This document shows, piece after piece, positions 34,999 through 63,850 of a stretch of 64,000 nt of DNA. A program made the position numbers and the translations under genes. Every line of letters starts with the position of its first letter. Position 1 is the stretch's first letter. This stretch comes from a virus. Its lineage: Duplodnaviria; Heunggongvirae; Uroviricota; Caudoviricetes. Below the pieces are notes generated by a model. It did no database searches. It saw only the letters and a list, made by a program, of their open reading frames with translations, and had not been told where the DNA came from. The DNA lies in the IMG/VR virus record IMGVR_UViG_2529292751_000001, positions 61,735 to 125,734 of that record; one strand, written 5' to 3'.

Positions 34999-35166
34999 AT
35001 GAGTAGCAAAAAGAGAGTACTCAATCCAGTAGAAATTAAAAAAGATGTAGATTACATTCCACTAGGAAGAGCATTCGATTTCTGGAACAACGAGGGAGAC
35101 GATATTTATGACGAAGTCTATGGGGAAGACAGTGAAGCAGGGCGAGGTATGGATAGCAAACGTTAA
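34999..35166 (+). CDS. putative antitoxin (55 aa)
   Basis: AAGGAGGATACGAGT-ATG; overlaps the toxin start; ORF track extends it upstream to 34906. Confidence 0.45.
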   Translation: MSSKKRVLNPVEIKKDVDYIPLGRAFDFWNNEGDDIYDEVYGEDSEAGRGMDSKR

Positions 35167-35452
35167 GTTCGTCCAAGATAATCAAACTAAAGTCAGACCA
35201 GTCTTGGCAATAAGCTTAGAAATCGATGGGGATGACGATGTTGTCGTCCTCCCTGTCACTTCTCAGAATCCAAGAAATGACTACGATGTAGAAGTTTCGG
35301 ATTACAAAGGGACTGGATTGTTAAAACAACCATCATACATAAGAACATCAAAGCCATTAACAATCGAAAAGAGAGAGCTTAAAAGAAAAATAGGCGAAAT
35401 CAAAGATGTTGACCTAGCGAACGCATTGGAAAAGTTTCGTTCATTATTTTAA
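35108..35452 (+). CDS. MazF/PemK-family endoribonuclease toxin
   Basis: GEVWIANV...VRPVLAIS...VVLPVTSQ typical of PemK/MazF; start at 35108 or 35120. Confidence 0.65.
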   Translation: MTKSMGKTVKQGEVWIANVKFVQDNQTKVRPVLAISLEIDGDDDVVVLPVTSQNPRNDYDVEVSDYKGTGLLKQPSYIRTSKPLTIEKRELKRKIGEIKDVDLANALEKFRSLF

Positions 35453-35501: not shown

Positions 35502-35605
35502 ATATCTCAAAAGACAAGTATTCTCTACTCTATGAGATATGATACCAATTTCATAATTATACTTAATATCTCATAAATATAAGTAATGTAGTCTCTATGA
35601 GATGG
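35502..35605. repeat. four copies of the 9-mer ATATCTCAT in alternating orientation at ~30-35 bp spacing (35502, 35532, 35566, 35598), including the 11-mer CTCTATGAGAT twice
   Basis: read directly from the sequence; region is non-coding and bounded by terminators. Confidence 0.7.
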
Positions 35606-35675
35606 GATTTTCTTACATTTTACAACTGCCGATAATAAAGGTTATGTAAACTAACTAAAAGTAAGTAGGTAAATA

Positions 35676-36533: not shown

Positions 36534-36773
36534 ATGATGCTATTCAGACGGGGCAAATCCAATAAAAAAGAAAAAGAGTTTAAGGCAATTGAAAATATGT
36601 TAATTGATGCCAAGATGAAAATCGACTCCTATAATCTCGATTTAAAAAACGTAGAATATACTGAGACAAAAGAGTTGTTAAATAGAGAAATCCGTCATCT
36701 AAGAGAGTTTATAGATACACTAAAGATTACATATACTGAGTACGAAAAGAACATGCAACGCAAAGAAAGATAG
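36534..36773 (+). CDS. hypothetical small coiled-coil protein (~79 aa)
   Basis: ORF track 36480..36773; ATG at 36534 after TGGAGGTGT preferred. Confidence 0.35.
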   Translation: MMLFRRGKSNKKEKEFKAIENMLIDAKMKIDSYNLDLKNVEYTETKELLNREIRHLREFIDTLKITYTEYEKNMQRKER

Positions 36774-36811
36774 TATGGTATAATATGTATGAGTCGCGTC
36801 ATTTTTCATTG

Positions 36812-36850
36812 CCTTGGCTAATCCCCAAGGTTTCTTTTTATTTTTCTTAA
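36812..36850 (+). terminator. Rho-independent terminator (CCTTGG/CCAAGG plus T-run)
   Basis: hairpin plus TTTCTTTTTATTTTT. Confidence 0.6.
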
Positions 36851-36955
36851 TATTCTGAATAATATTGAAAAATAAGGCTATTTCACTTTCACTTCATTCC
36901 CCTACTATATAATAGGAAGAAACATGACATATATATATGGATGAAGGAGGATACT

Positions 36956-39123: not shown

Positions 39124-40095
39124 TTATTGCTTAACGTGAACGTAAGCAGGACTTGCAGTAATGTAGAAATACTTACATCTGTACATCTTAGAACCGTTAA
39201 CTGTTAATTCCTCAAGTATTGTAAATGCTTCACCCTTCGGAACAGTTTTTTCTTTTGCATTCCAATCTGGAGCTGAGTAAACCCATAACTCTGGAGCGTC
39301 TACTACAACTAATTTCCCTACATTGCTAGTCTGTCTACGTGCAAAACGAGTGTAGCTAGGGTCTCCATATACCCATGAATTACCAACATTTAACCAACCG
39401 TCTTGTTCAGCCCATACAACATAGCTTTCTGGAGCGTTTAATTTACGAATTACTTCACCGCTTGTACTTGGAGTCTTACGTAGATTCACGTTTGTTCCAG
39501 TGATATAAACGATACCTAAACCTTCTGTTCCTGCATCTCCATTATTAGTTGGAGGAGCGATTGTATTACCGCCACCAGAACCATTGCTACCTTGAACCAT
39601 GTTTTTGAATCCTTCGAATCCACCTGCACGATTTAAGATTGGTCGTGGGCAATATTTACCAGACCAACGTTGGTGAGGAACTACATTTCCAATGCCGATA
39701 CCAGTTTGTCCCATTAAGAACTTCACTAATTTAGCAACGTTTGCTAATGCTTTCTCAAAGTTGCCATCTGAATTTTCAGCAGTTTCGATACCAATTGATT
39801 GGCGGTTACCTGTTCCACTATTACCGTCTCCTGCATGCCAACCATTTTCATTAATCGGTAAATGTTGAACGATACGATTACTATCTACTGTAAAATGCCA
39901 AGACTTTCCGTCTCCACCGTTAACTAAGTAGTTCGCATGCGCTCTAGCATCTGCACCTTTTTCTGTATTTTCAGTTGTGTGAACCGTAATATAATTAGGA
40001 CTCATAGGATACTGAGGTCTATTGTTATTACTTGCAGGAATAATCTTCGTTTCAAAAGGTACTCCACCGATGTTGCTTACATTAAATACTGTCAT
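39124..40095 (-). CDS. N-acetylmuramoyl-L-alanine amidase endolysin (PGRP/Amidase_2 plus C-terminal cell-wall-binding domain)
   Basis: NYITVHTTEN...WHF..WHAGDGN...GIE...CP motifs of Amidase_2; ORF track start 40125 trimmed to the ATG at 40095 after AAAAGGAGAG. Confidence 0.8.
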   Translation of the reverse strand: MTVFNVSNIGGVPFETKIIPASNNNRPQYPMSPNYITVHTTENTEKGADARAHANYLVNGGDGKSWHFTVDSNRIVQHLPINENGWHAGDGNSGTGNRQSIGIETAENSDGNFEKALANVAKLVKFLMGQTGIGIGNVVPHQRWSGKYCPRPILNRAGGFEGFKNMVQGSNGSGGGNTIAPPTNNGDAGTEGLGIVYITGTNVNLRKTPSTSGEVIRKLNAPESYVVWAEQDGWLNVGNSWVYGDPSYTRFARRQTSNVGKLVVVDAPELWVYSAPDWNAKEKTVPKGEAFTILEELTVNGSKMYRCKYFYITASPAYVHVKQ

Positions 40096-40194
40096 AAATA
40101 CTCTCCTTTTCTTGCCTTTTGGCAAGCTCTTATTTTTTTGTTTTATATATAATAGGAAGAAACTCGTTTTAAATTAGCTCTCCCTACCGATATT

Positions 40195-40214
40195 TCTGCA
40201 ATACTTTTGTTTAA
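40195..40214 (-). promoter_or_regulatory. conserved element, copy 18 (minus strand), upstream of the amidase
   Basis: exact consensus on the minus strand. Confidence 0.9.
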
Positions 40215-47943: not shown

Positions 47944-50900
47944 TTATAGTTTATTCTTGCTCTTTTGTAAAGCAATTTGTGGAAGAGATAGAATCGCATC
48001 CTTAATTCCATCAGCAGTCTTAATGTTAGGGAATTCAATATTATCGATAGTGATTTGAGTTGGAGAACTCGCAACACTTCTAGATACTGCCTGTGCATTA
48101 AACGTATTTGGCAATCGAGACAGCAACGCATCCGCGAACACCTTTCCTAGCTCACTGCTGATTTCAGTGAATGTCTTTTTCAATTCCTTGTTAAAGTCAT
48201 TAGAAATAGGCTTCATAATGTCTTCTACTGGCAATTTAGACAACACATCTTCGTTACCTTTGATGTATTTAGAATACGCATCAACTAACTCTTTTACGTA
48301 ATCTGATTGGATTTGCGGGAAGTCTCCCAAGATAGATTCGAATGCATCGCCAAGTTCTTTAATTGCATTTTCAAACTCTTTAACAGTTTCGTAATCTCCA
48401 TCTTTAGCATTAGAAAGAATCTTATCTAATTGGCTCAAGTAATCCTCTCTTGCCTTTTCCTCCATTTTCTGAAGTTCTAGTTTGGCTTTTTCAAGGTCTT
48501 CTTTCGCCTTATCAAGTTCCTTCTGGTCAGCTTCATAAACCCAATCCCATTGACCAAATTCGTTCTGCTTTAATGTCTGAACTTTCTTCTCTTGGTTAAG
48601 ATTATTAATCTTATTCTGAAGCTCAACAATATCAAGCTGTTTGTTTAGGTAGTCCATTTCGAACTTGCTTAGTTTCTCTTGCTTATCAAGAAGAGCTAGT
48701 TTATCCTCGTTAATAGAAGTTCCAAGGTCAGCCATTCTCTTATACATTTTCTCTAATGCAATTTCTCGTTCTAATCCTTCTATCCACAGCTCTTGATGTT
48801 GTTTCCAAGCTTTCTGAGTTTTCCCTCCGAACAGCTCTTTTTCCATCTTGTCGGTGATATTATTGAATGAGTTATCCATAATATTCTTGTTAATCTGAAG
48901 CAGTTCTTTATTACTATCGTTAAGTTGCTTATTGTATTGCTCAACTTGTGCATTGATTAGATTCCACTCGAAACTTCCTTTCTCATACAGACCAAGCTGT
49001 TGATTTAAGTAGTTTAGAGACTTCTTGATTTCAGCATTCTTATTTTGCTCCACATTAAGCTGTTCACCTAGAATAGTACCCTTTGTTGTTGTATTATTCT
49101 TGTCTAGTAAGTTGACGATACTTGTGAGGTAATCTAGACTAGCAGATGCCTTATCATACTCTTTAACAGCTTTGCTAAGTAGGCTAAATTCAAATTCGAA
49201 TCGCTTCTTAATAGAATCTTTAATGCTATTTTGAGCGCCTACATTATCCTTTTCATAAGTAGAAATTTGCTGTTTAATTTTTTCAACTTGGTCATCTGTT
49301 AAGCTTGTATCCTGTAACTGACGATTCAATTCTTCAATTGCCTCATTGTTACCTTGGATGTTCGCTCTCAGATACTTCTCTTGTAGCTTCATGCTGTCGA
49401 TAATATATTTATTAGTTAGAGAGTCTTTTTCATCTGGGTTTAGAGCTGAAGCGAGATTGCGTTCGTATTCTTTTAGAAGTGCCGACTGCTCTTTCTGAAC
49501 TTCTTTAATATACTTCGTAAGTTGTCCTGCTACAAGAGTACCGTATCCTGCATCAATCTTATTGATATCACCCATATCTCCCAACACTGAAGACGATACT
49601 CTTGACATCGATAAGTCTTGACCGTTCTTGTAAGCATATTCTAATCCTAAAAGCTGATTATACATTTGTTTATTGATATCTAATATGGAATTAGCAACCC
49701 ACTCTGTTCTCTCAACGTTTTTCTTAGCATATCCTGCTAACGCTTCTTGAACTTCTTTTTCGAGATTAATACGCTCTATAGCCATTTGCTGAAGTCTATT
49801 ATCTCTAGATAGGTCAAGCTCAGTAATATTGGAACTGTATAAGTCTCCAACTCCAGTTCTGCTTAAAAGACCATCTTGCAAGTTCTTTACAACATTATCA
49901 ATCTTAGTGTTATTTTCATCGATTGCAGAATTGAATTTGTTCATATCTTCGGTGATACGACTAATTTCAATATCGTTCATCGCTTGACGATACTTTATAA
50001 CAGCATCTGCCTGAGCTAGAATTGCAGAACTAACTTTCTGTAGCTGAGATTGAATTTGAGAGCCATTCTCCTTGAATTGTACTGACATAGTAGATAGGCG
50101 ATTAAACTCATTAATCAATTCAGACATGTTCTGCTTAGATTCATTTAAAGCTCTTGCGTTAAGATGTAAGGCAAGTTCCTTATCCTGTGAGCCAACGAAA
50201 CCAAGCTTTCTAGAAGTTATAGCATCTGAATTCGTTACTTTCGTAAGAATTGCATCTACTCTCTTCATTGTAGGCTCAAGGTTTTTTAGCTCTTCTGTAA
50301 TTTTAGCTTTCTCGATAGTGTCATCAAGACCTTTGACGTTAGAATTTAAGTTGGCAATGGTATCCTGCAATCCACCTATTTCGGTATAAAGGGATTTCCA
50401 TCTATTTAGCAATTCCTCTGCTTTTTGAGCAGACTCTCCTTTAAGGTCTTTAGCATGATACAGATTGTTAATATTATTAGTATCTGTATCTACCCAAAAT
50501 CCATAATCACTAAGCTTATTAAGGACTTCATCCAACTCTTTATCTTTGTAGTAAGATAAAATTTCATTATGAGACACTTGTTTTTTCAAAAGAGCTTGCT
50601 GTTGTTTGTAGAGCGGAATAAGCTTCGACTGGTCGTCCTTCGCTTCATTGATGGCGATAGTAAGGTTTTTCAGCTCTTTTTCAATGCTTGCACCCCTATA
50701 CATTTCTTGCCCCCAATAACGCCAAACAGACTCACTCACCGTAGCATTTTCATTCGCAGAGTTATAATCTCTGTCCGAATTATACTTAGAAACTCCCGAT
50801 ACGCTTCTACCAACACCTTTCACTGGGACTCCATTAGCACTTATAGAAGAGCTTTGACTAGAAGAGACGTTGCTCGCTACACTTGAAGACTTTCCTTGCT

Positions 50901-53900
50901 CTGGGGTAGATGATACAGACGCATCAACTTTCGCACCAGTTCCACTTCCTCTAATCTTATCTAGCAAACTCTTAGCTGATTTAGCCTTTTCAATTACCCA
51001 ATCTAGACCTTCGGCAACAACACTAGTTACAACTTTTGCAGGGATATCTTTATATGCCCCATTTAAAATGCCAATATCTTTTTCTGTATCCTTAGCTTGC
51101 TTACCACTTCTGTCAATTTCTTTCTGAACTTCTTGCTCTTTGTTTATGTGTTGACCAATAGCTATTAAGGCTTCCTCAGCAGTCTTAATAGTCGTGCCTT
51201 TTTCTTTTATCTTGGCATCAATATTATTTTGGATTTCTTTTTGTAAATTTTTGTCAGCCGCAATTTTTTCTGGGGCAATACCTGCATATTGCTTAAGTTC
51301 TCCGCCTAATGCTTCCACTTCATCTGCAGACAACTTGTGACCCTCAGCAACTTTCTTCTGAATATTAGCCAATTTATCAGAGGAGTCTCTCATATTACGA
51401 TATTGGCTAATCATAGCAGGATAAACCGCAGTTGCTTGCTCTGCTGTCAAGTTTGAAGCCTTCATATTCTTACCTTGTTTTAATAAAGCTTCCGCAGATG
51501 CATTAATAGAATGTTGCGCGGTCTCATATTCCTTACCTGCACTATTAATTTTCTTGCCCAATCCATCATACTCACCTTGCAACGTCTTAAGTGTCGCTTG
51601 CCACATCTTACGCTTTTGGTCATCTTCTGGAGAAGTCCCCAGTTTGCCCATAGCTGTGTTAATCTCGTCCATTTTACCTTTAACGACTTCCTGTTCACCT
51701 TTTAACTCCGCAATGGTTTGTTGGGACTCTTTCAGTTTCTCCCAGTCACCAGTCATCTGAGAGGCGATTTCGATAGTAGATTTTTCAGCTAATTCATCTT
51801 TCTTTTTCTTTAACTCATCTAGCTTAGCCTGCACTTCCTCGTAGCTATTAACTGTAACCTTAATATCTACCCCAAGGTCTTGACCCTGTTTCTCTATTTC
51901 ATCTTTAATCTTCATAAACTCGTCTTGTTCCATCCAAGCTTGTGTACCTTCTTGATTAGGGTCTTTATCAGTCTGCTTTGATTTGTCTATTTTCTCTTGC
52001 AACTTATCAAGGTTGGCTTGAGTTTTTTCAATCATACCATTAACTATAAAGTTTGTTGATTCAAATTTCTTAACCGACTGTTCATACTCTAAGGCTTGTT
52101 TTTCAGCACTCTTGAATAAATTGTCGTAAGCCCTACCCATATTATCGAACACAGGGACTCCAACGAAATCTAATAATAGTAAAGCGTCACCAACTAACGG
52201 AATCATTCCAAGCAGTTTACCAATACCCTTACCTACTGCAGAGATTTTGCTACTAGTTCCCTCTAGGACTGCGCCTGCGTTACTTGCACTTTGCACAGCA
52301 TTCCTAGTGCTATTGTTATTTCTGTTAGAGTCAGCGTTATTATTACTGTTATTATTCCTACCACCAGAATTAACGTTTCTAGAACCACCGTTGTTGATAT
52401 CTACAGTAGAAACATTAGAAACTCTTGCTTCTTTATTAAATAGTCGCGTTGCCCTTGTAGCTTCACCAATTTTACCTGTAAGAGTTCCGAAGTAGCTACC
52501 TACTTGAGACAAGTCCCTCATAATACCGCTTGCACCAGTTTTCATAGTATCAGTTAATTGTCTCATGCCATTACTCATAGCATGAATACCAACAGCAAAT
52601 GCAGTGAATTTTAATGCTTCCATGAATTTTTCATTCGTTGCTACATCTGCAAGTTTTTGAAGTGCTACAGTTACTGCATCGACCAATCCTGTTAAACCTG
52701 TAGAGTTTCCGATATTATTCATTAACTCCATCCAAGCGTTCTTAAGCTCTACCATTTTGAATTTAAGTGATGACGCTTGTTTTGCATGCTCTAAGTACGC
52801 AGAACCATTCGTGCCTTTCCCAAACTGTTCGTTGGTTTCTTTTGAAACCTCTTCAACTCGCTCCCACTGGTCAATGATACCACCAAGAATTTCGGCATGC
52901 TCTTTACCTGCTAAATAGAACTTCGCAGTACCCTTTTGCTCTTGAGAAAGAGAATCCCATTTTTTAACTAGGTCTCCTAAGATTGCGCTACCCTCACGCA
53001 TCTGACCATTAGAATCCTTAAAGTCTACTCCAATTTGCTTGAACCATGCAAATTTCTTTTGAGTGTCTGGAGTTAACTGAGAAGTGATATTAGTCATGTT
53101 CATGGAAATCGTTTTAATACCTGTACCAATACGCTCTCCACCCTTACGAGTAGCTTCCTGCGCTCCTGTAATCATACCTGTTAAATATCCAAAATCGATA
53201 CCAGTATCTTTTGCAGTATTCGCAGAACGAACGTAAGCTTTTCCGAGGTCATCCATTTCAATGGCGTGATTATTGGCAGTTTCGTTCATTACGTTGATTA
53301 CGTCATTCGTTTCAAGACCTTGCTTTCTAAATGCAAGCAAAGGAACTTCCATGTACTTAACCATGTCATCTGGTTTTAAGTTACCTACGAAAGAACCGAT
53401 TAGTGATACCTTCGCTTTTTCTTGCGCTTTTATAAACGTTTCACCAGATGTTACCCATGTTTCTACAGCTTTCATATAGTCATTGGCAGTTACACCAAGA
53501 GTAGAACCGACATCAAATGCAGTATCTTTAAAGCGATTTAAATCATCTTCTGAAGCCTGTGCAACCTTTGATACACCAATAAATGCCTCATCAAGCTCTC
53601 GCATAGGTTCTAAGACAGCTCGGATACCTTGTTCAAAGTTCGCGTATGTAGAATAGAAATCAACAACGCCATGAGCATCGTTGCTCATTCTATCTTTCTC
53701 TCTAGCTTCTGAACGAAGACGATTTAATCTTTGCTGAGCAGTTTGAGCCTGTTCAATAGCGTGAATTTCTCTCATTCGTTCTTGAACTAGAGAATTCTGG
53801 GCTGACAATGATGTCTTAATCGCGTCTGCCTTTGCTCTTTCGCTTGATAGCGCTCTTTCAATTTCAGCTCTTTCTCTTGTTCCTGCAAAAGCTAAATCTC

Positions 53901-55476
53901 TACTAAGCTGATTAATATTTCTTACCACAGCTTCATATTCTTTAAGTTTAGAAGTAACTGCATCTTGTTCAGCTTTATGTTTGGCTGTAATTTGGCTACG
54001 TTCCATCTCTTGCTGATTAATCTTGCCTGCTTCAGTTAATTGCTTCTGCATTTCACGAGTAACAAGCTGAACACTTTCAAACATTTGTCTGTTTGCTTGT
54101 TGGTTTCGTTCTGCGAGTACAAGCTGTTCGCGTAATGCTCTTAATTGAGAATTTTCCGCAACACCTAGACCACCCATATTCTTTCTAGTGTCTAGTTCTG
54201 CAATCTTCATCTTTAAGCGATGCACATCTTGAAGGTCTGCTTTCATAACAGCTAGTGCTTCTTTTTGCTCTTGCTTAGTTTTTCTCTCCTCTTCAGTAAG
54301 TCTCTTAGCATCAGCTAACGCTTGCTTCTTAGCTTCCGCCTGTTGAACCTGTAGCATACCAATTGTTCTAAGATTGTCCATCTCATCTTTTTGAGAAGAG
54401 TTCATTTTCTCTTGAAGACTATGTTTTTCTTTAATCTTATTTTGAGCCTTCTCATAATGACCATACAGTTCTTGAAGAGAAGCTTTTTCTTTCTCTGTCG
54501 CATTAACCATTTGTACAGCAAGAGAGTTTTTCTTAGCCTCTAACTGAGCAACTTTTGATACAGCCTGTGCAATTTCATTATTAGCTTGTTTTTCTTGTTG
54601 CTTTAAAGCTAATATAGTTTTTGCCTCTAAAGCCAATTCTTGCTGACGCTTAAGCTCTTTTAGCGAGTTGTTATCAGTAGCATTCTGAGCATATCTTAAT
54701 CTATACTCGTATTGAAGCATCTCCAATTGCTCTTTCTGAATTCCTCTTTCTCTTTCAAGGAGTTGGAAGTGCTTACCTTGAGCATTTACTTGTTCCATTT
54801 CAATCTGATGGATTCTTCTAGTAACACCCTCGATTTCTTTCATCGCTCGCATTTTATCTTCGACAACTTTAACGTCTTGCGTACCATCTGGCTTGTTGGT
54901 CGTTGTTTTAGATACACCAGAGCCAACATTCTCTGTTACAACCTTTGTTTTTAATGTTGTAACACTGCCATCTTGATTTCTAACCTGTCGAGACAAGTTG
55001 CTAATCTTCGTCCATTCTCCTGCTTGCTCTTTTAGCGCCTGCGTTTCTCCCTTAGTCTTAGACTTGAGGCTATCCATAGCATCATTCATTCGCTTAGCAT
55101 CGCTAAGAACTTCTTTTAGAGGAGCATCCAAATCAATGCCTTTAACATCTATTTTCAATTCGCGCTTCTTAGTTAATTCTTGGTCAAGTTGTTTCAATTC
55201 TCTATGAAAAGTATTTATAGCCTTTAAAGCATTGCTAACATCTGTCTTTAACTTAATTTCAAAAGCATCTTCTTTTAACGCTGATTTAATTTTGGCTCTT
55301 ACACTTTTTAGGCTATTGCCATCAATATCGATGTTAATCTTACCTTCGAAACCATTTTTTACTTTCGCCCATTTCTGAGCTAATTGAGCCTGTAGTTCTC
55401 CAACCGTAGGGAATTCGACACCAACTTCAATTCCTATTTTATTCGCCACTAAGCTAACACCTTCCCTTCTTAGCAA
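47944..55476 (-). CDS. tail tape measure protein (2510 aa)
   Basis: size, extensive coiled-coil K/E/Q-rich sequence, position in the tail operon; contains an N/S-rich low-complexity segment (~52250-52400). Confidence 0.85.
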   Translation of the reverse strand: MLRREGVSLVANKIGIEVGVEFPTVGELQAQLAQKWAKVKNGFEGKINIDIDGNSLKSVRAKIKSALKEDAFEIKLKTDVSNALKAINTFHRELKQLDQELTKKRELKIDVKGIDLDAPLKEVLSDAKRMNDAMDSLKSKTKGETQALKEQAGEWTKISNLSRQVRNQDGSVTTLKTKVVTENVGSGVSKTTTNKPDGTQDVKVVEDKMRAMKEIEGVTRRIHQIEMEQVNAQGKHFQLLERERGIQKEQLEMLQYEYRLRYAQNATDNNSLKELKRQQELALEAKTILALKQQEKQANNEIAQAVSKVAQLEAKKNSLAVQMVNATEKEKASLQELYGHYEKAQNKIKEKHSLQEKMNSSQKDEMDNLRTIGMLQVQQAEAKKQALADAKRLTEEERKTKQEQKEALAVMKADLQDVHRLKMKIAELDTRKNMGGLGVAENSQLRALREQLVLAERNQQANRQMFESVQLVTREMQKQLTEAGKINQQEMERSQITAKHKAEQDAVTSKLKEYEAVVRNINQLSRDLAFAGTRERAEIERALSSERAKADAIKTSLSAQNSLVQERMREIHAIEQAQTAQQRLNRLRSEAREKDRMSNDAHGVVDFYSTYANFEQGIRAVLEPMRELDEAFIGVSKVAQASEDDLNRFKDTAFDVGSTLGVTANDYMKAVETWVTSGETFIKAQEKAKVSLIGSFVGNLKPDDMVKYMEVPLLAFRKQGLETNDVINVMNETANNHAIEMDDLGKAYVRSANTAKDTGIDFGYLTGMITGAQEATRKGGERIGTGIKTISMNMTNITSQLTPDTQKKFAWFKQIGVDFKDSNGQMREGSAILGDLVKKWDSLSQEQKGTAKFYLAGKEHAEILGGIIDQWERVEEVSKETNEQFGKGTNGSAYLEHAKQASSLKFKMVELKNAWMELMNNIGNSTGLTGLVDAVTVALQKLADVATNEKFMEALKFTAFAVGIHAMSNGMRQLTDTMKTGASGIMRDLSQVGSYFGTLTGKIGEATRATRLFNKEARVSNVSTVDINNGGSRNVNSGGRNNNSNNNADSNRNNNSTRNAVQSASNAGAVLEGTSSKISAVGKGIGKLLGMIPLVGDALLLLDFVGVPVFDNMGRAYDNLFKSAEKQALEYEQSVKKFESTNFIVNGMIEKTQANLDKLQEKIDKSKQTDKDPNQEGTQAWMEQDEFMKIKDEIEKQGQDLGVDIKVTVNSYEEVQAKLDELKKKKDELAEKSTIEIASQMTGDWEKLKESQQTIAELKGEQEVVKGKMDEINTAMGKLGTSPEDDQKRKMWQATLKTLQGEYDGLGKKINSAGKEYETAQHSINASAEALLKQGKNMKASNLTAEQATAVYPAMISQYRNMRDSSDKLANIQKKVAEGHKLSADEVEALGGELKQYAGIAPEKIAADKNLQKEIQNNIDAKIKEKGTTIKTAEEALIAIGQHINKEQEVQKEIDRSGKQAKDTEKDIGILNGAYKDIPAKVVTSVVAEGLDWVIEKAKSAKSLLDKIRGSGTGAKVDASVSSTPEQGKSSSVASNVSSSQSSSISANGVPVKGVGRSVSGVSKYNSDRDYNSANENATVSESVWRYWGQEMYRGASIEKELKNLTIAINEAKDDQSKLIPLYKQQQALLKKQVSHNEILSYYKDKELDEVLNKLSDYGFWVDTDTNNINNLYHAKDLKGESAQKAEELLNRWKSLYTEIGGLQDTIANLNSNVKGLDDTIEKAKITEELKNLEPTMKRVDAILTKVTNSDAITSRKLGFVGSQDKELALHLNARALNESKQNMSELINEFNRLSTMSVQFKENGSQIQSQLQKVSSAILAQADAVIKYRQAMNDIEISRITEDMNKFNSAIDENNTKIDNVVKNLQDGLLSRTGVGDLYSSNITELDLSRDNRLQQMAIERINLEKEVQEALAGYAKKNVERTEWVANSILDINKQMYNQLLGLEYAYKNGQDLSMSRVSSSVLGDMGDINKIDAGYGTLVAGQLTKYIKEVQKEQSALLKEYERNLASALNPDEKDSLTNKYIIDSMKLQEKYLRANIQGNNEAIEELNRQLQDTSLTDDQVEKIKQQISTYEKDNVGAQNSIKDSIKKRFEFEFSLLSKAVKEYDKASASLDYLTSIVNLLDKNNTTTKGTILGEQLNVEQNKNAEIKKSLNYLNQQLGLYEKGSFEWNLINAQVEQYNKQLNDSNKELLQINKNIMDNSFNNITDKMEKELFGGKTQKAWKQHQELWIEGLEREIALEKMYKRMADLGTSINEDKLALLDKQEKLSKFEMDYLNKQLDIVELQNKINNLNQEKKVQTLKQNEFGQWDWVYEADQKELDKAKEDLEKAKLELQKMEEKAREDYLSQLDKILSNAKDGDYETVKEFENAIKELGDAFESILGDFPQIQSDYVKELVDAYSKYIKGNEDVLSKLPVEDIMKPISNDFNKELKKTFTEISSELGKVFADALLSRLPNTFNAQAVSRSVASSPTQITIDNIEFPNIKTADGIKDAILSLPQIALQKSKNKL

Positions 55477-55489
55477 TACTTTTGTTTAA
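55470..55489 (-). promoter_or_regulatory. conserved element, copy 22 (TTAAACAAAAGTATTGCTAA, minus strand) between the recombinase stop and the TMP start
   Basis: 18/20. Confidence 0.8.
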
Positions 55490-55490
55490 G

Positions 55491-55511
55491 GGAGGGTATT
55501 ACTCCTCCCTG
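55491..55511 (-). other. stem-loop (AGGGAGG...CCTCCCT) abutting motif copy 22
   Basis: read directly from the sequence. Confidence 0.5.
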
Positions 55512-56530
55512 TTTTGTTTTCTAACCTGCTTTAGCTTATCACGAATCTCAGCCTTGGATTTAGGCTTAACATAATGTTTTTGAGTCGTGGATACATCGGA
55601 ATGGTTAAGAAATTCTTGAGCCAGTGTTAAATCACCTGTCTCATCAACGATTCTGTTCCCTGCTGTTTTACGAAGACAGTGAGGATGCAAGTCTGGCAAC
55701 CCTAAGATTGTACCAATCTTTCTAACTCTCATATAGATTGAAGTCTGAGACATCTTTCTATATTCTCCATCTTTCTTAACAAGGAAAATCCCATCGCACT
55801 CTAGATTGTCCATTGGTTTTCGTTTTTCTTTCCATTCTTCTAACAACTTAGCAGAACCCTCTTCGAACGCTACTTCTACCATCTTACCGCGCTTCTCTCT
55901 AATATCTAAGAACATCATATTCTCAACATCTAGACTAGACCACGTAAGTTTAGAGATAGCTCCGTTTCGATTTCCACTTTCAATCATGATGTGCCAGATT
56001 AATAGGTCTTGAATATCAAACTTTCTTCCCTTTTCTTTCTGGTAATCTTCATGAAGATGCTTTGTTACAATATCAATCTGCTCTTGAGTTAAGAAATAGT
56101 GATTAATAAGTTTCTCATCATTAGCACCCTTCATTCTATCTAGCTTTCTATCAAATGGGTGAGCCTCGATAATACCGCGCTTCATAGCCCACAAGTAGTA
56201 ACTAGATACAGCAGAAAGCTTTGTGTTAATTACTTTCTTATTATTCCCAAGCGTATCTTGACAGAAGCCAATGTAACCTTCCATAATATCTACAGCGTTT
56301 TCCATATATTCTTCATCATGAATGAAAATATTCTCCCATTCTTCTTCCAAATAAACAAGAAATTGATTGAAGTAATTCTGGTAAACCTTGTATGTTGTTT
56401 CCTTTACATCTTTGTTTTTGATAATGTTAGAACGAAGATATTTTTCATAAGCTTTAACGCTCTTCTTATTAACCTTCTCCAACTTATCTTTTGTAAAATA
56501 ACGTTTATAAACTCTTTTCTGAGCCATCAA
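55499..56530 (-). CDS. tyrosine recombinase / phage-integrase family protein embedded in the tail operon
   Basis: N-terminal SAM-like domain; C-terminal catalytic-type residues: HCLRKT (H-x-x-R), NHSD (His), QKHYV (Tyr). Confidence 0.8.
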   Translation of the reverse strand: MMAQKRVYKRYFTKDKLEKVNKKSVKAYEKYLRSNIIKNKDVKETTYKVYQNYFNQFLVYLEEEWENIFIHDEEYMENAVDIMEGYIGFCQDTLGNNKKVINTKLSAVSSYYLWAMKRGIIEAHPFDRKLDRMKGANDEKLINHYFLTQEQIDIVTKHLHEDYQKEKGRKFDIQDLLIWHIMIESGNRNGAISKLTWSSLDVENMMFLDIREKRGKMVEVAFEEGSAKLLEEWKEKRKPMDNLECDGIFLVKKDGEYRKMSQTSIYMRVRKIGTILGLPDLHPHCLRKTAGNRIVDETGDLTLAQEFLNHSDVSTTQKHYVKPKSKAEIRDKLKQVRKQNREE

Positions 56531-56571: not shown

Positions 56572-57075
56572 CTAAAATACCTTTACGTCCCATCCTTCTC
56601 TACGAAGAGCCATTGCTAATTCTTTAGGGATGTCAGCATCTAATTTATGATAAGATTTCTCCATATAATGAGCGCCATCTCTATCCCATAGAGAACCACT
56701 TGTACCTTCTTCAATCCACATTGGAATGTATTCACTAGTATCTTCTGTATATGAAACGTCCGCATGGGCATTCCATCCAACTCCACCAAAAGCACCATTT
56801 CTGTTATACGCATTGATTTTGTCGGTATCCATGATAATTTCAAATGTAGCAAATTTAGTTCCAATCTTTAGATTGTCAATGGTTACACTGTTCATTAGCT
56901 CGAATGTTCTATCATAAGCGTATTCACCTTTAGGCATATACGTATCATAAACATTCTTCTTTACATTCTCCTGCACAACCTTAATGCAGATGTTCGTAAT
57001 CTGATTCTGTATAGTATCTATAATGGAACGTTTTAAATGAGCATGGAGAGCAGAGACGCTATCAAACTTCCGCAC
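56572..57075 (-). CDS. tail-module protein (167 aa), GTG start
   Basis: ORF track; overlaps the upstream gene by 14 nt. Confidence 0.45.
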   Translation of the reverse strand: MRKFDSVSALHAHLKRSIIDTIQNQITNICIKVVQENVKKNVYDTYMPKGEYAYDRTFELMNSVTIDNLKIGTKFATFEIIMDTDKINAYNRNGAFGGVGWNAHADVSYTEDTSEYIPMWIEEGTSGSLWDRDGAHYMEKSYHKLDADIPKELAMALRREGWDVKVF

Positions 57076-57706
57076 CGTCTGCTACCTCATGCTCTGTTTT
57101 CCCAGTTTTTAATTGAATTGTATCTGCTGTTTGAGTAATAGTTGATTCTGCATTTTTTAATTTTTCTTCTCTGCTCAATAATTCTGTTTTAGCGAGATTC
57201 TCAATGTCTTTTGTAGTCTGTTCAATCTTATCTAAGTTTTCTTTTACCTTTGGATTATAATTAGCATGATTTAATAATGCTGAAGGGATAGAATTGATTA
57301 ATTCTGATTGAGCCAAGATGCTATCCGCGCTTATGATTTCAGACTTCATATTTTCAGCATAAAGCTTATTAATCTCTGAGATAATTTGAGCTACTACATT
57401 TTGTGCAATCAACAGATGGACTGAAGGATTATCAATAGTCTTATTAATTTCCTCATCTGACATTCCACTAACATCAATATTCGTTAGTAATGGAAATACA
57501 TCTTTCATCATTGTCATTCCATCAAAGATAATTTTGTCATTTTCTAAGCCCATTCCCTTTGCGTTCTGCAAATCGATGATTGCATTTGCGTCAACTAGAG
57601 TTGGTTCGTAAATTTCAATATTCCCTTGTGGAGCATTAACGTATTCACGAATTTTTCGAACACCCTCTTGAGCTACTTGAAGTGAATCTAATTTAATTTT
57701 TGTCAT
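57062..57706 (-). CDS. tail-module protein (214 aa), possible major tail or chaperone-like protein
   Basis: ORF track; AAGGAGG SD; position upstream of the TMP. Confidence 0.45.
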   Translation of the reverse strand: MTKIKLDSLQVAQEGVRKIREYVNAPQGNIEIYEPTLVDANAIIDLQNAKGMGLENDKIIFDGMTMMKDVFPLLTNIDVSGMSDEEINKTIDNPSVHLLIAQNVVAQIISEINKLYAENMKSEIISADSILAQSELINSIPSALLNHANYNPKVKENLDKIEQTTKDIENLAKTELLSREEKLKNAESTITQTADTIQLKTGKTEHEVADGAEV

Positions 57707-57724: not shown

Positions 57725-57744
57725 TTTGCAAATCTTTTGCTTAA
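57725..57744 (-). promoter_or_regulatory. conserved element, variant copy 23 (TTAAGCAAAAGATTTGCAAA, minus strand)
   Basis: 16/20; predicted TSS of the adjacent promoter falls at its 5' edge. Confidence 0.7.
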
Positions 57745-57748
57745 TTAA

Positions 57749-57777
57749 ATAATATCAAAAAAGATGGCATGCGTCAA
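57749..57777 (-). promoter_or_regulatory. sigma-A promoter on the minus strand (TTGACG - 17 - TATTAT)
   Basis: hexamers and spacing. Confidence 0.6.
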
Positions 57778-57802
57778 CACATACCATCAAACTTTTCGAT
57801 AT

Positions 57803-57944: not shown

Positions 57945-58409
57945 TTAGCTCTTCTTTTCCGTCTCATCTATCGAATCAAATTTACCATCTTTAAAAGTAG
58001 CGCGGTCTCCGCCTCTACCCTTAACCTGTGACAGTCTATCAACGAACCCTTGAGGGATTGGGACTCCTAAAGAAGCTAAGTTTTCGAGTACAGATACTCC
58101 CTCTACGAAGATATAGAACCATACAGCACCTGTTCTAAGTACTGGTGCAGTCTCTGGCATCAACCCATCAAAGAGTGTAGCTAACATAATTACAATGAAG
58201 TATCCAACTTTTGTTGAAAATCCTTCTCTCATTCTTTGGCTAGAGAAGTTTTTATCTCTCCATCCCTTTATCATACCTGTTGCAATATCTATGATGACAC
58301 AAGCAACAATTACCTGTAATGGCTTATCCCATCCTCCAAGTAATGCTGTTAATCCTGTCATACCGCCTGCAAAAATAACAGATACCTCATTTAAGTTTTC
58401 GAACTTCAA
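57945..58409 (-). CDS. holin, Phage_holin_4_1 family (TTG start)
   Basis: MKFENLN...GGMTGLTALLGGWD...DIATG...VGYFIV...ENLASLGVPIP matches the 4_1 holin family pattern; 3-4 TM segments. Confidence 0.55.
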   Translation of the reverse strand: MKFENLNEVSVIFAGGMTGLTALLGGWDKPLQVIVACVIIDIATGMIKGWRDKNFSSQRMREGFSTKVGYFIVIMLATLFDGLMPETAPVLRTGAVWFYIFVEGVSVLENLASLGVPIPQGFVDRLSQVKGRGGDRATFKDGKFDSIDETEKKS

Positions 58410-59206: not shown

Positions 59207-62200
59207 TTATTTATTATTTATTTTTTCATTCAAGTATTTAACTTGTTCAGAAAGTTCTTGAATAGCCTTCCAAGCCAATGTTGTCATACCGTAGCCATCA
59301 ACTGATTTCCCATCTCTACCTTGTACTAATTGTGGTGCTTCTTCTGCAATTAATCCAATGTTCAGTTTTTCACTGTCATCTTGGTTATTGTAGTGGTAAA
59401 GTCTAGCTTTAGATGCGTTAATAATATCTAACGCGCTTCCACCAAAGTGAGATATATTCTTTTTATAATCTCTAGATGAAGCATTTTCTACAATACCTGC
59501 CACTCTCGACCAGTTTGTATCATCACCGTTACGAAACTCAAAGCGCCCTTGATTCTTTTGCCATTTAATGATACCTTGTCCTGCAAATTGCTGAACATAG
59601 TTGGCATCGCCTTGTTTCCAAATAGCAAAGATACGCTCGTTATTATGACTAAATGCATGACCACCGCCATACGAAGCATATTCAGTGGTTTGCGATGACC
59701 CTTTACCAATTCCTGTTAAATATCTAAGGCGACCATCAGCATCTTTAATTGACCACGTAGCATCACTACCTGCATAAGCCCCACCTTTGATATTCCCGAA
59801 ACCATCGAAGAAAATTGATGCACTAGGTTCGAATTGAATTGATGCATATTGAGTTCCGTTTTTGTTCTTAACAAGAATACCGCTTTGTCCTTCTAGACGT
59901 AGCCCATAACCGTTACCACCATCACTGCTTGTAACATCAAATGTCACCGTACCTGTCATGTTCGGAACCCAAAATCTTAGTTCGGAAGGTTCAAATGCTG
60001 AACTTCTTGAACCTTGCTGTGCGTTAAATCTAGCAGGTTCAAGATAAGCTTTCTTATCTCCAAATGGCGAACCACTTTCAGCCATTTCAAATACAGATAT
60101 ACCGCCATCTTTCATCTCGGCATAGTTCTGTTTCTTCGCTGTTGTATCCATTGCACCATAGCTTTTAATAGAATTACCTTCTAATACTAATTTAATAGAA
60201 GAGTTTGAGGCATTAATACTTTCATATCTAATACCCTTAATTGTTCCACCGACAAGCTTATCAGCACTTACAGTCTGAGCTTTAAGATTATTGATAAACG
60301 CAGTGTTAGCAAATAGATTCGCAACATCAATTTGAACTGCTTTGACGCTTCCTGTCTCAATTTGAGCGCCATTAATAGTTGTCTTATTAGGGAATATCCA
60401 AGGTTTAATAGTATTGTTTACCCCATTAGCTGTTCCTTGAGCGCTATCAGCTAATGATTTAGCTTTCTCATTGATTACCTTGACTAGCTGTGACTTCTTA
60501 TCATAGTAATCATCAAATTGACCTCGGAAGGTAGCTCCAGTAACAGCAGAAGTCGTTGTCATATTCGTTAAAATACCGCCAGTACCATTAAGTACAGTAT
60601 TTAGAGTGTTGTAAGCATTGACAAAGTTTGTCTTCTCTGCCCCTATGCCATATGTTGTAGCTAGGACTTCGTACTGAGGTTTCTCAGATGCCATAACCGC
60701 CCATTCTTTTTTCAATTGGACTTTTTCTACTGGAGTAATCTTACTGTCAGAAGACATGTCTGCAATAGAGTTTTTAACCTCTTGCGCCTTTGCATCTGCA
60801 CCAGTTCCAATACTTCTAGATAACTCATTAATCTTTCTGACTAGTTGCGCTTTTTTATCGTAATAGTCATCAAACGTATTTCTAAATGTTTGACCATTAA
60901 CATCACTTGTTGTAGTAATGTTAGAGATAAGAGGCGAAAGAAGAGTATTTAACGTATTATAAGAGTTGACGTAATTTGTCTTTTCAGTAGTGATACCAAA
61001 TGTATTTGATAATGCTTCATACTGAGGTTTTTCTGCCGAAATCGTTGCCCACTCTTTTTTCAATTGCTGTTTTTCAAGCGGAGTAAGCTTATTATCATTA
61101 GACATGTCTGTAATAGAATAATCATAGTCTGTCGCATCAATAACTGTAGCGTATGCAATATGCCAAGTTAAAGGTAACGTTCCGCCCTCTATATTGAAGA
61201 AGTTCGTTGAGCTGAAAGTTCCTGTTGAACCACATTCTAGTCTAAATAAGTACTCTTCCCATTTACCTGTGCCTGCTACTGGAGTTAACCATTCTGACTT
61301 GCCACCTGTTCCAGTTGAATTACTAGCAAAGACAAGCTTAGAACCGACAGGTATTTTCGCGACAATTCTAGTTACAAAAATAGCATTTGCTCTAGACATA
61401 GTCTGGAATGAGAATCCACCGTATGAAGGAGAGATAGGTAATGCAAGAGACTTTACCTCCAAGACATGTGTTGAATTTGTTGGGGCATCACTTGGCTTAG
61501 CAACTCTGTTTATTGTTACATTTGAGTTGGCTGAGTTGTTATACACCTTAACGTCATTAAGCCCATTCCTAAACATTGGGTCGCTGTATAATACCTTTCC
61601 ATTCAGCCCTTGAGTCAATATTCTAGACAACTCATTAATCTTTCTGACTAGTTGAGATTTTCTATCATAGTAATCATCAAACTGCGCTCTAAATGTTGCG
61701 CCAGTCACACTAGAAGTTGTCGTCATGTTTGTAAGTATTCCGCCACTTCCATTTAATACTGTATTCAGAGTATTGTACGCATTAACGTAATTATTCTTCT
61801 CTCCAGTAACACCAAACCCATTTGCCAAGGCTTCAAATTGAGGCTTCTCAGCAACCATTACAGCCCATTCCTTTTTAAGCTGAACCTTTTCTACAGGAGT
61901 AATTTTGCTATCGCTAGACATATCCGCAATAGAGTTCTGAGCTGATTGAGCTTTGCTTTCTGCGCTAGTACCAATGCTTCTAGCTAGTTCGTTAATTTTT
62001 TTAACCAATTGTGACTGCTTGTCATAGTAATCATCAAAAGTATTTCTGAATGTCGACCCATTTATATCACTAGTAATACTTGCGTTAGAAATGATAGGCG
62101 ATATTGCTGTATTCAAAGCATTATAAGCATTAATATAGTTGGTTTTCTCAGTAGTAACTCCATACGTATTAGCAAGGGCTTCATAGTTTGGCTTTTCAGC

Positions 62201-63850
62201 AGTAATTGTCGCCCATTCTTTCTTTAATTGTTGCTTTTCAATCGGAGTTGCTTTATTGTCGTTTGACATATCAGCAATTGCATTTTTGCTCGCTGTAGCT
62301 TTCTCATCAACGCCAGTAAATAGATTTTGAATATCTCCAGATGAAATTGTCCAATCCATTGGCTTATTACCTTTGTATAGAGCGACCCAATCTACCGTAG
62401 ATGCAGTAGTATTACTTGGATAGTTATAAAGACCTAATGTCTTTGTGTGGCTTCCTGCAGGAGTTACAGCTTTAAATGTTACATATGTCACACCGTCAGC
62501 GTATTTTGTCGTTGCATAACCAACGTTATTTGCCCCACCATTCATCCAAATACCAAACTTCTGACCTGCAGGAACAGTTCCTTTAATTACAAAGGTATAT
62601 TCTTGACCTGCAACCCAATTCTCAGTCAATGTATACGTAGCTATCTGATACTCAGTAGTCGAATAATCTGCATGAGAATTTAATAGTAAGTTGTTGCCAC
62701 CAATAGACATATTATCAATGGCGTTTTGACTATCTTGAGCTTTCTTGTTAACTTCAGAAAGCAACTTATCATAATCCTCAGGGGCTAAAGTGAAATCAGT
62801 TTTTCTATTACCTTTTTCGAGTTGCATTCTCTTAATAAAGAAGTCAACCCCAGACACAACTGCTGTCGTATAGAAGATAGCCGTTCCATTCCCTGCTCCA
62901 GTCCCTTTGAATGTATGAGAATATTCTCTCCAAGTAGTATCAACGTCTACTGTTTTAACATCAAGACTCTCTGCGCCAATTTGTAGTTTATGACTTCCAG
63001 TGCTTGCCTTCATCATTACGCTAACTGTATATTCTTGGTCTTTTTCAAACACTCTGGTAGCAGAAACACCGCCACCTAATCTTTGATATATGCCTGCTCG
63101 ACCTGCACCGCTATTCGGAGTAAACTTGAAAGCTTTGTCTTCGCCATCATCTACAACTGCTGTTTGAGCCACATTTGAATACCAATTAGTAGCTCCTTGC
63201 AGTAGCCCTGCATTTAGGAATATGTTTCTGCCACCAAATGAAATGTTATTAATCATCTCATCAATGTCCTCTTGAGCCAATGTAAAGTCTGTGACTACGT
63301 TACCAAGTTCCCCTTTTACATTTCTGATTTTAAACGTAACAGGCGTACCACTATTATTAACTAATCCAATGTTAGATTGGTCATATAGGTCGGTGTTTGA
63401 ATTATCTTTGTTCTTCCAAGTAAACCAACATTTCGTCCATGTATTAGCCTTTAGACTCTTACTAGAAGTTTTCCTCATTGCAATATCATCATTATCATTC
63501 GTTGTAGATGTGCCAGTAACAGGAAAGTTATTTACATCAGCATTCCAATTGGCATCAATAGGAGAATAGATTTCAAAGCTAATTGTAAACCAACTTCCAA
63601 TTGGGACTACAGATGTTTTATCAGTTATTCTTACACCTGCTCCCCATGAACCCCCTGCCCCGCTATTGGCAGTTAAAGTCCAAGTATTTGTAGCCTCATC
63701 ATATGACGAAGATGCTACATTGATAGGAGTTATCTGCTTCTTTCTAATGATGTTTTTCATACCAAATTGCATTCCATCAATCTGATTCTTAGCATCAGCA
63801 CCTGCATTAACTTTGCTTTGCATAGAAGGGTCTAAACTCTGGAATGTCAC
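59207..63850 (-). CDS. giant modular tail fiber / receptor-binding protein with a C-terminal intramolecular-chaperone (peptidase S74-like) domain; the N-terminus may extend beyond the window
   Basis: C-terminus ...SSRDYKKNISHFGGSALDIINASKARLYHYN...YGMTTLAWKAIQEL typical of tail-spike autoproteolytic chaperone domains; the frame stays open upstream of the GTG at 63850 for the 13 codons checked. Confidence 0.7.
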   Translation of the reverse strand: MTFQSLDPSMQSKVNAGADAKNQIDGMQFGMKNIIRKKQITPINVASSSYDEATNTWTLTANSGAGGSWGAGVRITDKTSVVPIGSWFTISFEIYSPIDANWNADVNNFPVTGTSTTNDNDDIAMRKTSSKSLKANTWTKCWFTWKNKDNSNTDLYDQSNIGLVNNSGTPVTFKIRNVKGELGNVVTDFTLAQEDIDEMINNISFGGRNIFLNAGLLQGATNWYSNVAQTAVVDDGEDKAFKFTPNSGAGRAGIYQRLGGGVSATRVFEKDQEYTVSVMMKASTGSHKLQIGAESLDVKTVDVDTTWREYSHTFKGTGAGNGTAIFYTTAVVSGVDFFIKRMQLEKGNRKTDFTLAPEDYDKLLSEVNKKAQDSQNAIDNMSIGGNNLLLNSHADYSTTEYQIATYTLTENWVAGQEYTFVIKGTVPAGQKFGIWMNGGANNVGYATTKYADGVTYVTFKAVTPAGSHTKTLGLYNYPSNTTASTVDWVALYKGNKPMDWTISSGDIQNLFTGVDEKATASKNAIADMSNDNKATPIEKQQLKKEWATITAEKPNYEALANTYGVTTEKTNYINAYNALNTAISPIISNASITSDINGSTFRNTFDDYYDKQSQLVKKINELARSIGTSAESKAQSAQNSIADMSSDSKITPVEKVQLKKEWAVMVAEKPQFEALANGFGVTGEKNNYVNAYNTLNTVLNGSGGILTNMTTTSSVTGATFRAQFDDYYDRKSQLVRKINELSRILTQGLNGKVLYSDPMFRNGLNDVKVYNNSANSNVTINRVAKPSDAPTNSTHVLEVKSLALPISPSYGGFSFQTMSRANAIFVTRIVAKIPVGSKLVFASNSTGTGGKSEWLTPVAGTGKWEEYLFRLECGSTGTFSSTNFFNIEGGTLPLTWHIAYATVIDATDYDYSITDMSNDNKLTPLEKQQLKKEWATISAEKPQYEALSNTFGITTEKTNYVNSYNTLNTLLSPLISNITTTSDVNGQTFRNTFDDYYDKKAQLVRKINELSRSIGTGADAKAQEVKNSIADMSSDSKITPVEKVQLKKEWAVMASEKPQYEVLATTYGIGAEKTNFVNAYNTLNTVLNGTGGILTNMTTTSAVTGATFRGQFDDYYDKKSQLVKVINEKAKSLADSAQGTANGVNNTIKPWIFPNKTTINGAQIETGSVKAVQIDVANLFANTAFINNLKAQTVSADKLVGGTIKGIRYESINASNSSIKLVLEGNSIKSYGAMDTTAKKQNYAEMKDGGISVFEMAESGSPFGDKKAYLEPARFNAQQGSRSSAFEPSELRFWVPNMTGTVTFDVTSSDGGNGYGLRLEGQSGILVKNKNGTQYASIQFEPSASIFFDGFGNIKGGAYAGSDATWSIKDADGRLRYLTGIGKGSSQTTEYASYGGGHAFSHNNERIFAIWKQGDANYVQQFAGQGIIKWQKNQGRFEFRNGDDTNWSRVAGIVENASSRDYKKNISHFGGSALDIINASKARLYHYNNQDDSEKLNIGLIAEEAPQLVQGRDGKSVDGYGMTTLAWKAIQELSEQVKYLNEKINNK
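60450..62300 (-). repeat. internal protein-coding repeats in the fiber gene: two (A-B) pairs of ~105-120-aa units (DMSNDNK..TP.EKQQLKKEWA... / IADMSSDSKITPVEKVQLKKEWAVM...)
   Basis: near-identical DNA blocks at ~62290-61990, 61960-61630, 61120-60820 and 60780-60450. Confidence 0.8.

Follow-up and report, generated by a model that had tools for sequence, protein, structure and literature searches.

A conserved Xer/Cre-type tyrosine recombinase among the tail genes of a large SPbeta-like siphovirus lineage

The recombinase gene and its surroundings

The window, a 64,000-nucleotide stretch of the caudoviricete record IMGVR_UViG_2529292751_000001 (IMG/VR, positions 61,735 to 125,734), encodes a tyrosine recombinase directly ahead of the tape measure protein (TMP) gene. 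The recombinase gene occupies 55499..56527 on the minus strand and specifies a two-domain, Xer/Cre-like protein of 342 amino acids (aa), in the slot held by yomM in SPbeta. An initial annotation had placed an integrase-family open reading frame (ORF) here, between tail genes and TMP, carrying the motifs HCLRKT, NHSD and QKHYV; the ORF list, Pfam and the recovery of all three motifs confirm it. Its length of 343 aa holds for the minus-strand ORF 55499..56530, which includes a TTG (56530) one codon ahead of ATG 56527. Because a GAGGTG Shine-Dalgarno lies 5 nt 5' of this ATG, and because the ATG product is 100% the same as an NCBI B. cereus protein present in several assemblies, the gene is 55499..56527 and its product 342 aa rather than 343 aa.

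Upstream, 44 nt separate the recombinase gene from a YomN-family gene (167 aa; 56572..57075, minus strand; PF27376), whose product is 25% identical to SPbeta YomN and which carries a tail completion or neck annotation in related phages. The YomN-family gene overlaps by 14 nt with a 214-aa gene in the YomO position (57062..57706, minus strand), the first gene of the local unit. Downstream lies the TMP gene (47944..55476, minus strand; 2510 aa as listed; PF10145), with a GTG near 55452 as its likely start. The gap between recombinase and TMP start, 22-46 nt, is taken up by a copy of an 18-nt element (TTAAACAAAAGTATTGCt; 55472..55489, minus strand), which sits between the recombinase stop and the TMP Shine-Dalgarno and is part of the TMP leader. 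No attP was found in non-coding DNA beside the gene or at a prophage end: both flanks are short and filled by Shine-Dalgarno and element sequences, as had been noted from the sequence, and the gene is internal to the tail block.

The minus-strand order is tail fibre (1547 aa), a DUF4376 protein, a 52-aa ORF, holin, the 214-aa gene, the YomN-family gene, recombinase, TMP, distal tail genes and endolysin. Terminator-like and promoter-like sites precede the 214-aa gene (57749-57788). These upstream signals (57727..57788, minus strand) comprise a terminator-like hairpin after the holin gene (57763-57788), a promoter-like sequence (57749-57777) and a further copy of the 18-nt element (57727-57744), and no minus-strand terminator-like site was found within the run from the 214-aa gene through the YomN-family and recombinase genes to TMP. 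Judged from this arrangement, the recombinase is probably transcribed late, together with the 214-aa, YomN-family and TMP genes.

A hairpin with a 7-bp stem, AGGGAGG-N8-CCTCCCT (55489..55510, unstranded), spans the recombinase stop codon. This 7-8-7 hairpin is single in the window and missing in close relatives, whose stop codon runs directly into the 18-nt element and forms part of it. The hairpin was considered as a recombination site and rejected on both grounds.

Active site and fold

The recombinase matches PF00589 (Phage_integrase) over residues 146-323, scoring 79.9 bits against a Pfam cut-off of 27.1 (E 2.5e-22), and its N-terminus matches a SAM-like N-domain of recombinases (E 3.8e-5); PHROGs likewise assigns it to integrase families. 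An alignment of 40 homologues (54-95% identity) shows no variation at six residues, R187, K212, H283, R286, H309 and Y319, and this bears out the earlier reading of the catalytic-type residues as intact. In a wider alignment, the full catalytic set is kept in 19 of 20 more distant homologues, including those of Sundance, Funu1, c-st and phiCD211; the sole exception is SPbeta YomM, with Lys at the 286 position of the second catalytic Arg.

The AlphaFold2 (AF2) model, with a predicted local distance difference test score (pLDDT) of 87.6, is composed of a helical core-binding domain, a linker and a catalytic domain, and includes a β-hairpin (E205-210/E216-220) in whose turn K215 lies, as does K212. 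The top Foldseek matches are XerA, Tn1549 Int, IntI, XerH, Cre and the lambda Int core (probability 1.00). An arm-binding N-terminal domain is absent: within the 342 aa the N-terminus consists of core-binding helices only, and lambda Int is matched without its arm domain. Among sequences of solved structures, the nearest are a XerC-like chain, XerA and XerD. The whole length aligns to the XerA, XerC and XerD profiles, each under its NCBIfam equivalog cut-off (XerA, 94 bits versus 220; XerC, 93 versus 335; XerD, 68 versus 330), and XerS scores 52 versus 267. As these scores fall far under the cut-offs, the protein is Xer-like and not a Xer orthologue. The recombinase is thus a two-domain Xer/Cre-type tyrosine recombinase with intact catalytic residues, and it is predicted to be catalytically active.

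The fold class and phage lineage are shared with MrpR (YopR) and YopP. SPbeta-like phages have recruited recombinase folds as repressors, and MrpR, which binds SPBRE, retains only three of seven catalytic residues (PMC10516654). The initial annotation had accordingly proposed a repressor-type protein that recognises a 20-nt element, and a copy of the element does abut the gene. The window recombinase, however, keeps all its catalytic residues, invariant across its homologues; it shows no similarity to MrpR/YopR (BLASTP E 0.12), and profile and structure comparisons place it nearest to active recombinases (XerA, Tn1549 Int, IntI, XerH and Cre). In related plasmids the YopP-type gene is a separate gene.

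The element itself, given here as the 18-nt sequence TTAAACAAAAGTATTGCA, is present in 26 copies in the window (833 to 57744) against 0.27 expected, for example at 3204-3221, 19945-19962, 40197-40214 and 55472-55489, with none in 32-40 kb. All copies point the same way as the local genes, each a short distance 5' of a Shine-Dalgarno and start codon. The element resembles a phage promoter or a leader signal, or alternatively an SPBRE-like operator. Its asymmetry, copy number and constant co-orientation with transcription also argue against a non-catalytic regulator bound to it, and a late gene would be an odd place for a lysogeny repressor. We therefore reject the regulator reading, to which we leave very little probability. 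A hairpin follows some element copies (3227, 8133).

Conservation across phage-plasmids

Homologues of ~80% identity reside on circular plasmids of B. wiedmannii (137.6 kb) and B. velezensis (129.7 and 148.2 kb), and the Vagococcus, Limosilactobacillus and Ligilactobacillus plasmids that carry homologues of 43-49% identity measure 108-138 kb. Across four genera, at least six sequenced relatives have been deposited as circular plasmids. The window is collinear with the B. wiedmannii and B. velezensis plasmids, which encode terminase, head and tail proteins, nrd, a PHP-domain (DNA polymerase III alpha-like) protein, HU, a toxin-antitoxin system and RepA. Neither carries an annotated serine integrase, and the only other recombinase-fold gene in both is of the YopP type, has HxxK and lies in the early region. 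Assemblies with proteins identical to those of the window contain contigs of 126-127.6 kb. Together with the plasmid relatives, these contigs indicate that the window belongs to a B. cereus-group phage-plasmid, SPbeta-like, extrachromosomal and ~127 kb in size. Near-identical phage DNA was absent from the phage collection searched.

Both Bacillus plasmids have homologues of 27 window ORFs. The recombinase ranks first among these in conservation, with 79% and 80% identity, and the others span 37-72% (next ORF, 72/68%; NrdE, ~67-69%; PHP-domain protein, 57-61%; YomN, 50-53%; TMP, 42-43%). This ranking points to strong purifying selection, so the recombinase is not a remnant, and the captured-remnant option raised earlier falls away. 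The gene is clearly functional, and it is a core gene of a ~125-140-kb SPbeta-like siphovirus lineage.

The slot ahead of the tape measure gene

In SPbeta the order is yomO-yomN-yomM-(yomL, opposite strand)-yomK-yomJ-yomI(TMP). With yomO-yomN-yomM ahead of the TMP block, the window recombinase is the positional counterpart of yomM, and this order together with the upstream YomN-family gene upholds the parallel to yomM suggested in the initial annotation. YomM occupies the same slot but is only 27% identical over 109 aa, with Lys in place of the second catalytic Arg. In viral contigs close to SPbeta, a window-type protein of 60% identity sits between YomN and homologues of yomL/K/J/I, making SPbeta YomM a divergent allele of the slot.

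The slot, past the YomN/tail-completion gene and ahead of TMP on the same strand, is filled likewise in the phages LC76P1, Sundance, KKP_3916 and Kirov and on plasmids of B. wiedmannii, B. velezensis, Vagococcus fluvialis and Limosilactobacillus reuteri. A YomN-family gene is found at the matching position in Kirov, Sundance, LC76P1, Vagococcus and L. reuteri. Recombinase identity is 51% in Lysinibacillus phage LC76P1 and 31% in Brevibacillus phage Sundance; in Alicyclobacillus phage KKP_3916 the annotated coding sequence (CDS) is shorter and the recombinase match falls into two parts. IMG/VR holds 222 relatives, most on contigs of 120-140 kb, and these include a gut-metagenome group at 48-51% identity. 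YomN, YomO or TMP neighbours are detectable at 23 of 80 IMG/VR loci, and a strict synteny criterion (a long open frame at most 700 nt downstream) holds at 10 of 76, a low rate because one to three small genes (yomL/K/J-like) often lie between. The homologues of c-st, phiCD211 and fusobacterial prophages are located elsewhere, not in the TMP slot. In the B. wiedmannii plasmid, the annotated 365-nt gap between recombinase and TMP (L013 10931-11296) is an annotation artefact, as the TMP frame by homology starts ~36 nt past the recombinase stop.

Placement of a recombinase ahead of TMP is already published for related phages. Tyrovirus gp50, a Xer-like recombinase encoded between a neck protein and TMP, was described as "especially curious" in its location; the same placement was reported for Psychrobacillus phage Perkons and Lactococcus 949-type phages, co-transcription of gp50 with structural genes was inferred, its function was left open, and an 11-6-11 inverted repeat past the gp50 stop was proposed as attP (PMC9703825). 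Tyroviruses (Tsamsa, Thrax1-5, Kirov) thus share with the window a Xer-like gene between the tail-completion or 'neck' gene and TMP. The Kirov protein is 32% identical to the window recombinase over the catalytic C-terminus, with similarity limited to ~110 residues. The 11-6-11 inverted repeat is present after the stop in Kirov but has no counterpart in the window or its close relatives, and Tyroviruses carry two further Xer-like genes. We found no discussion of yomM in the literature searched, and the MrpR paper (PMC10516654) does not mention it; literature on the SPbeta virion proteins YomN, YomU, YomI and YonB yielded nothing relevant.

A tyrosine recombinase in the tail module is a recurring feature of large Firmicute siphoviruses, spanning SPbeta relatives, Tyroviruses and 949-type phages. 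To this the window adds a constraint on the recombinase above that on any other shared gene, phage-plasmid hosts without another competent recombinase, and a concrete candidate site with adjoining dyads.

A dif-like site at 35.6 kb

The candidate site, ACTGCCGATAA-TAAAGG-TTATGTAAACT, is a 28-bp core of 11-6-11 layout at 35625..35652 on the plus strand, and it is the only Xer-type core found. B. subtilis dif is ACTTCCTAGAATATATATTATGTAAACT (PMC3025954); the window core matches it at 19 of 22 arm positions, whereas the best of 100 shuffles, each allowed three alternative left arms, reaches at most 18. The core is syntenic in both Bacillus plasmids, within regions homologous to the 35.6-kb region of the window. 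In the B. velezensis plasmid it consists of left arm ACTTCCTAGAA, centre TATATG and right arm TTATGTAAACT, and in the B. wiedmannii plasmid of left arm TGTGCTTAGAA, centre TATATG and right arm TTATGTAAACT. In every element examined, the central 6 bp are unlike those of B. subtilis chromosomal dif.

The two Bacillus plasmids, 64-73% identical over aligned stretches, were scanned for conserved 28-mers. Conserved non-coding segments are few: copies of the 18-nt element, 17-bp palindromes by RepA, and one two-arm box with a 6-bp centre. This dif-like box is the only conserved non-coding 28-mer with two arms and a 6-bp spacer. A scan of the window and the two plasmids for 11-N(5-9)-11 dyads returned mostly terminator-like hairpins and none in common besides the dif-like box, and no other conserved non-coding dyad with a 6-8-bp spacer was found in both Bacillus plasmids.

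Two ~39-bp dyad units, ATCTCA-N22-TGAGAT, lie beside the core (35502..35606, unstranded) and are possibly accessory sequences; their arms co-vary among elements. The dyad units may be accessory sequences or a small structured RNA, and an Rfam search of 35.3-36.3 kb gave nothing meaningful. In generalised form, the dyads read TCTCA-N21-23-TGAGA with a conserved centre AGTATaCTTGT (35502-35606; L038-L040 near 6000), and in many plasmids of the B. cereus group a dif-like core follows them. The repeat-rich site at 35.5 kb, which the initial annotation had offered as one possible substrate, therefore flanks a dif-like Xer core and is the best lead among its suggestions. What is new here is that these repeats, within a toxin-antitoxin/lysogeny island, adjoin a 28-bp dif-like core that is syntenic in both related plasmids and absent in SPbeta.

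The layout of dyads plus core occurs in 141 PLSDB plasmids, 131 of them from Bacillus, and the Bacillus megaplasmids pBMB400 and pBMX_1 have a plasmid xerS gene ~0.9 kb away from it. Dif-like cores are also present in the plasmid prophage IEBH and in Brevibacillus phage Sundance, in Brevibacillus phage Jenst 5.3 kb from a XerD-like gene, and in phage c-st 1.3 kb from its homologous Xer gene. Complete SPbeta contains no dif-like site above chance.

A PemK/MazF toxin gene (35108..35452, plus strand) adjoins the dif-like site and gives it a plasmid-maintenance context. Besides this toxin gene and the core, the island (35108-38050) includes a bidirectional terminator (~35680-35715) and, at ~35770-35800, a conserved box TATCGATACACCAGAGGACGCTCTGG that other Bacillus plasmids also have, as well as a 52-aa minus-strand ORF and an HTH_3 regulator. 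It also holds a RapH_N/TPR receptor gene, followed in related contigs by a 44-aa ORF, a pair resembling Rap-Phr or arbitrium systems.

Genome topology as a possible function

The reading we tentatively favour, at somewhat under an even chance, is that of an active, late-made recombinase handling genome topology, through multimer resolution and/or circularisation, and acting in trans on phage DNA. Transcribed with the tail genes, the enzyme would act on a site in the phage's own DNA and interconvert circular, multimeric and monomeric genomes. It could resolve multimeric DNA, either of the plasmid prophage or produced by replication, and/or circularise the incoming genome, with no integration of the phage beside its own gene. 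It might use the dif-like site alone, as XerS, XerH and Cre use theirs, or jointly with host XerD.

Several known systems have features in common with the window. XerS/difSL, XerH/difH, XerA/dif and P1 Cre share the two-domain fold of the window recombinase, P1 is likewise a plasmid prophage, and the window carries a 28-bp, 11-6-11 dif-type site in the same replicon. The c-st Xer recombinase is homologous (25% identity over 97% of the query) and belongs to a large siphovirus whose circular plasmid prophage also has a dif-like site, although its Xer gene is found with replication genes and 1.3 kb away from the site, and the window gene lies ahead of TMP. c-st is a proven plasmid prophage, and dimer resolution is what the Xer-like recombinases of plasmid prophages are "believed" to carry out (PMC8026635). 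SPbeta differs in integrating by the serine recombinase SprA and in lacking a dif-like site, whereas the window lineage has plasmid relatives with such a site. The presence of dif-like sites in plasmid forms and their absence from SPbeta, whose YomM lacks R286, makes it more likely that the plasmid forms use Xer-type multimer resolution and that the conserved recombinase is linked to it.

A number of observations weigh against this interpretation. At the active site, the acidic residue (Asp or Glu) expected three positions past the first Arg is replaced by Ala190, which is (nearly) invariant family-wide. The recombinase gene lies 20 kb from the dif-like site. In Cre/loxP, XerS/difSL, XerH/difH and integrase/attP, the enzyme gene and its site are adjacent; unlike those single-recombinase Xer/Cre systems, the window has a distant site, a gene in the late tail operon and Xer scores under the cut-offs. 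The arms of the site track the host: those of the B. velezensis plasmid equal the B. subtilis dif arms exactly, and the window core shares its left arm with B. thuringiensis phage IEBH. Arms that follow host dif fit host XerC/XerD as the enzyme, host mimicry in B. cereus being deduced from IEBH and from the B. subtilis/B. velezensis pair. IEBH carries a dif-like site, and Table 1 of PMC8026635 lists no recombinase for it. Conversely, a complete Vagococcus plasmid keeps the recombinase ahead of TMP without a dif-like site. In Vagococcus p35B2_c1, a 183-aa tyrosine recombinase (L248 24022-24771), with an upstream inverted repeat AGTTCACTAT-N10-ATAGTGAACT and beside a RelB antitoxin gene, occupies the maintenance junction where the Bacillus plasmids have the dif-like site. 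Finally, the relatives include Lactococcus 949 group phages said to be virulent (PMC9703825), in which plasmid maintenance is irrelevant.

Much of this evidence can also be read as host XerC/XerD serving the dif-like site, with the tail-operon recombinase having a lytic-cycle role at another site, for example processing or joining replicated genomes before packaging, or acting at terminal repeats. The host-tracking arms, the IEBH site without a listed recombinase and the Vagococcus recombinase without a site all fit such a division of labour, as does the placement in the structural module, kept across Bacillales and Lactobacillales. The Tyrovirus authors hold the same view, and in their phages the 11-6-11 inverted repeat directly follows gp50 (PMC9703825). 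In the window lineage, however, the search gave no alternative site: the inverted repeat that follows the stop codon is unconserved, and both related plasmids lack a second common dyad with a 6-8-bp spacer. We regard this alternative as possible, and nearly as likely as a direct role in genome topology. That the dif-like site at 35625-35652 is itself the target of the recombinase is doubtful, a minority prospect.

Chromosomal integration, with the recombinase as a classical or a dif-targeting integrase (in the manner of integrative mobile elements exploiting Xer, IMEX) in place of a plasmid state, appears improbable. Homologues of 57-58% identity do occur on contigs of 0.4-0.7 Mb, fusobacterial homologues lie near prophage ends beside another integrase, and a dif-like attP could target host dif. 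Both the arm-binding domain and an adjacent attP are absent, however; the dif region is uninterrupted in every contig of this phage, the longest being 126-127.6 kb, and the relatives are circular plasmids. The unlike central 6 bp of all elements examined also speak against exchange with chromosomal dif.

A more speculative variant of the topology reading, slightly less probable than chromosomal integration, is that the late-made recombinase is loaded into the virion beside TMP, pairs with host XerD on the host-mimicking dif site or on a terminal-repeat site, and closes the linear genome into the plasmid prophage. If true, this would be a tail-delivered, hybrid phage-host Xer machine analogous to Mu N or P1 Cre, and it would explain the top conservation and the TMP-side position even in phages without lysogeny. 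Should the link to the dif-like site hold, it would show how ~130-kb phage-plasmids keep their genomes monomeric or circularise; should it fail, the recombinase would have a lytic-cycle role worth finding.

Tail-fibre genes and additional features

The recombinase gene lies 3 kb from tail-fibre genes upstream of it, and a recombinase acting on a tail-fibre switch had also been considered in the initial annotation. An invertase or shufflon-type enzyme switching fibre or host-range genes would suit this proximity, the internal repeats and strain-dependent length of the fibre gene, and the position of the Funu1 homologue, which follows fibre genes that include an opposite-strand ORF. The inverted repeats bracketing the fibre genes in 54.5-64 kb are, however, chance-level pairs only, so that the search for flanking recombination sites gave no credible candidate; the fibre repeats are direct and in frame, and nothing convincing was found around the Funu1 fibre genes. 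The switch is thus unsupported, and we rank it as the least probable of the functions considered.

The tail-fibre gene (59207-63850) contains in-frame direct repeats with periods of 357 and 1164 nt, and its product varies by strain, with lengths of 1547, 1776, at least 2092 and 2149 aa. The holin gene (57945-58409) separates the fibre genes from the YomO/YomN/recombinase/TMP unit; the endolysin gene (39124-40125), which closes the late block, is ~18 kb away.

By RepA, a 17-bp perfect palindrome, GAGACGAT-N-ATCGTCTC, is present three times and conserved between two plasmids (B. wiedmannii L015 ~19736-19884 (119.7 kb); L023 ~49539-49610, L024 ~334). They were rejected as a recombinase core for their 1-nt spacer and their absence from the window, and are probably an origin or partition site. 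Around 25 Mycobacterium phages (M. smegmatis cluster) have, at ~40.2-40.7 kb of their genomes, 35-nt matches of 86% identity to the dif-like core region. Stretches of ~2.6 kb with no listed CDS occur at equivalent places in B. wiedmannii (L015 8515-11122), B. velezensis (L024 8458-11050) and Vagococcus (L249 23938-26546), and may represent a pseudogene, a gene that is not listed or some large feature without coding function.

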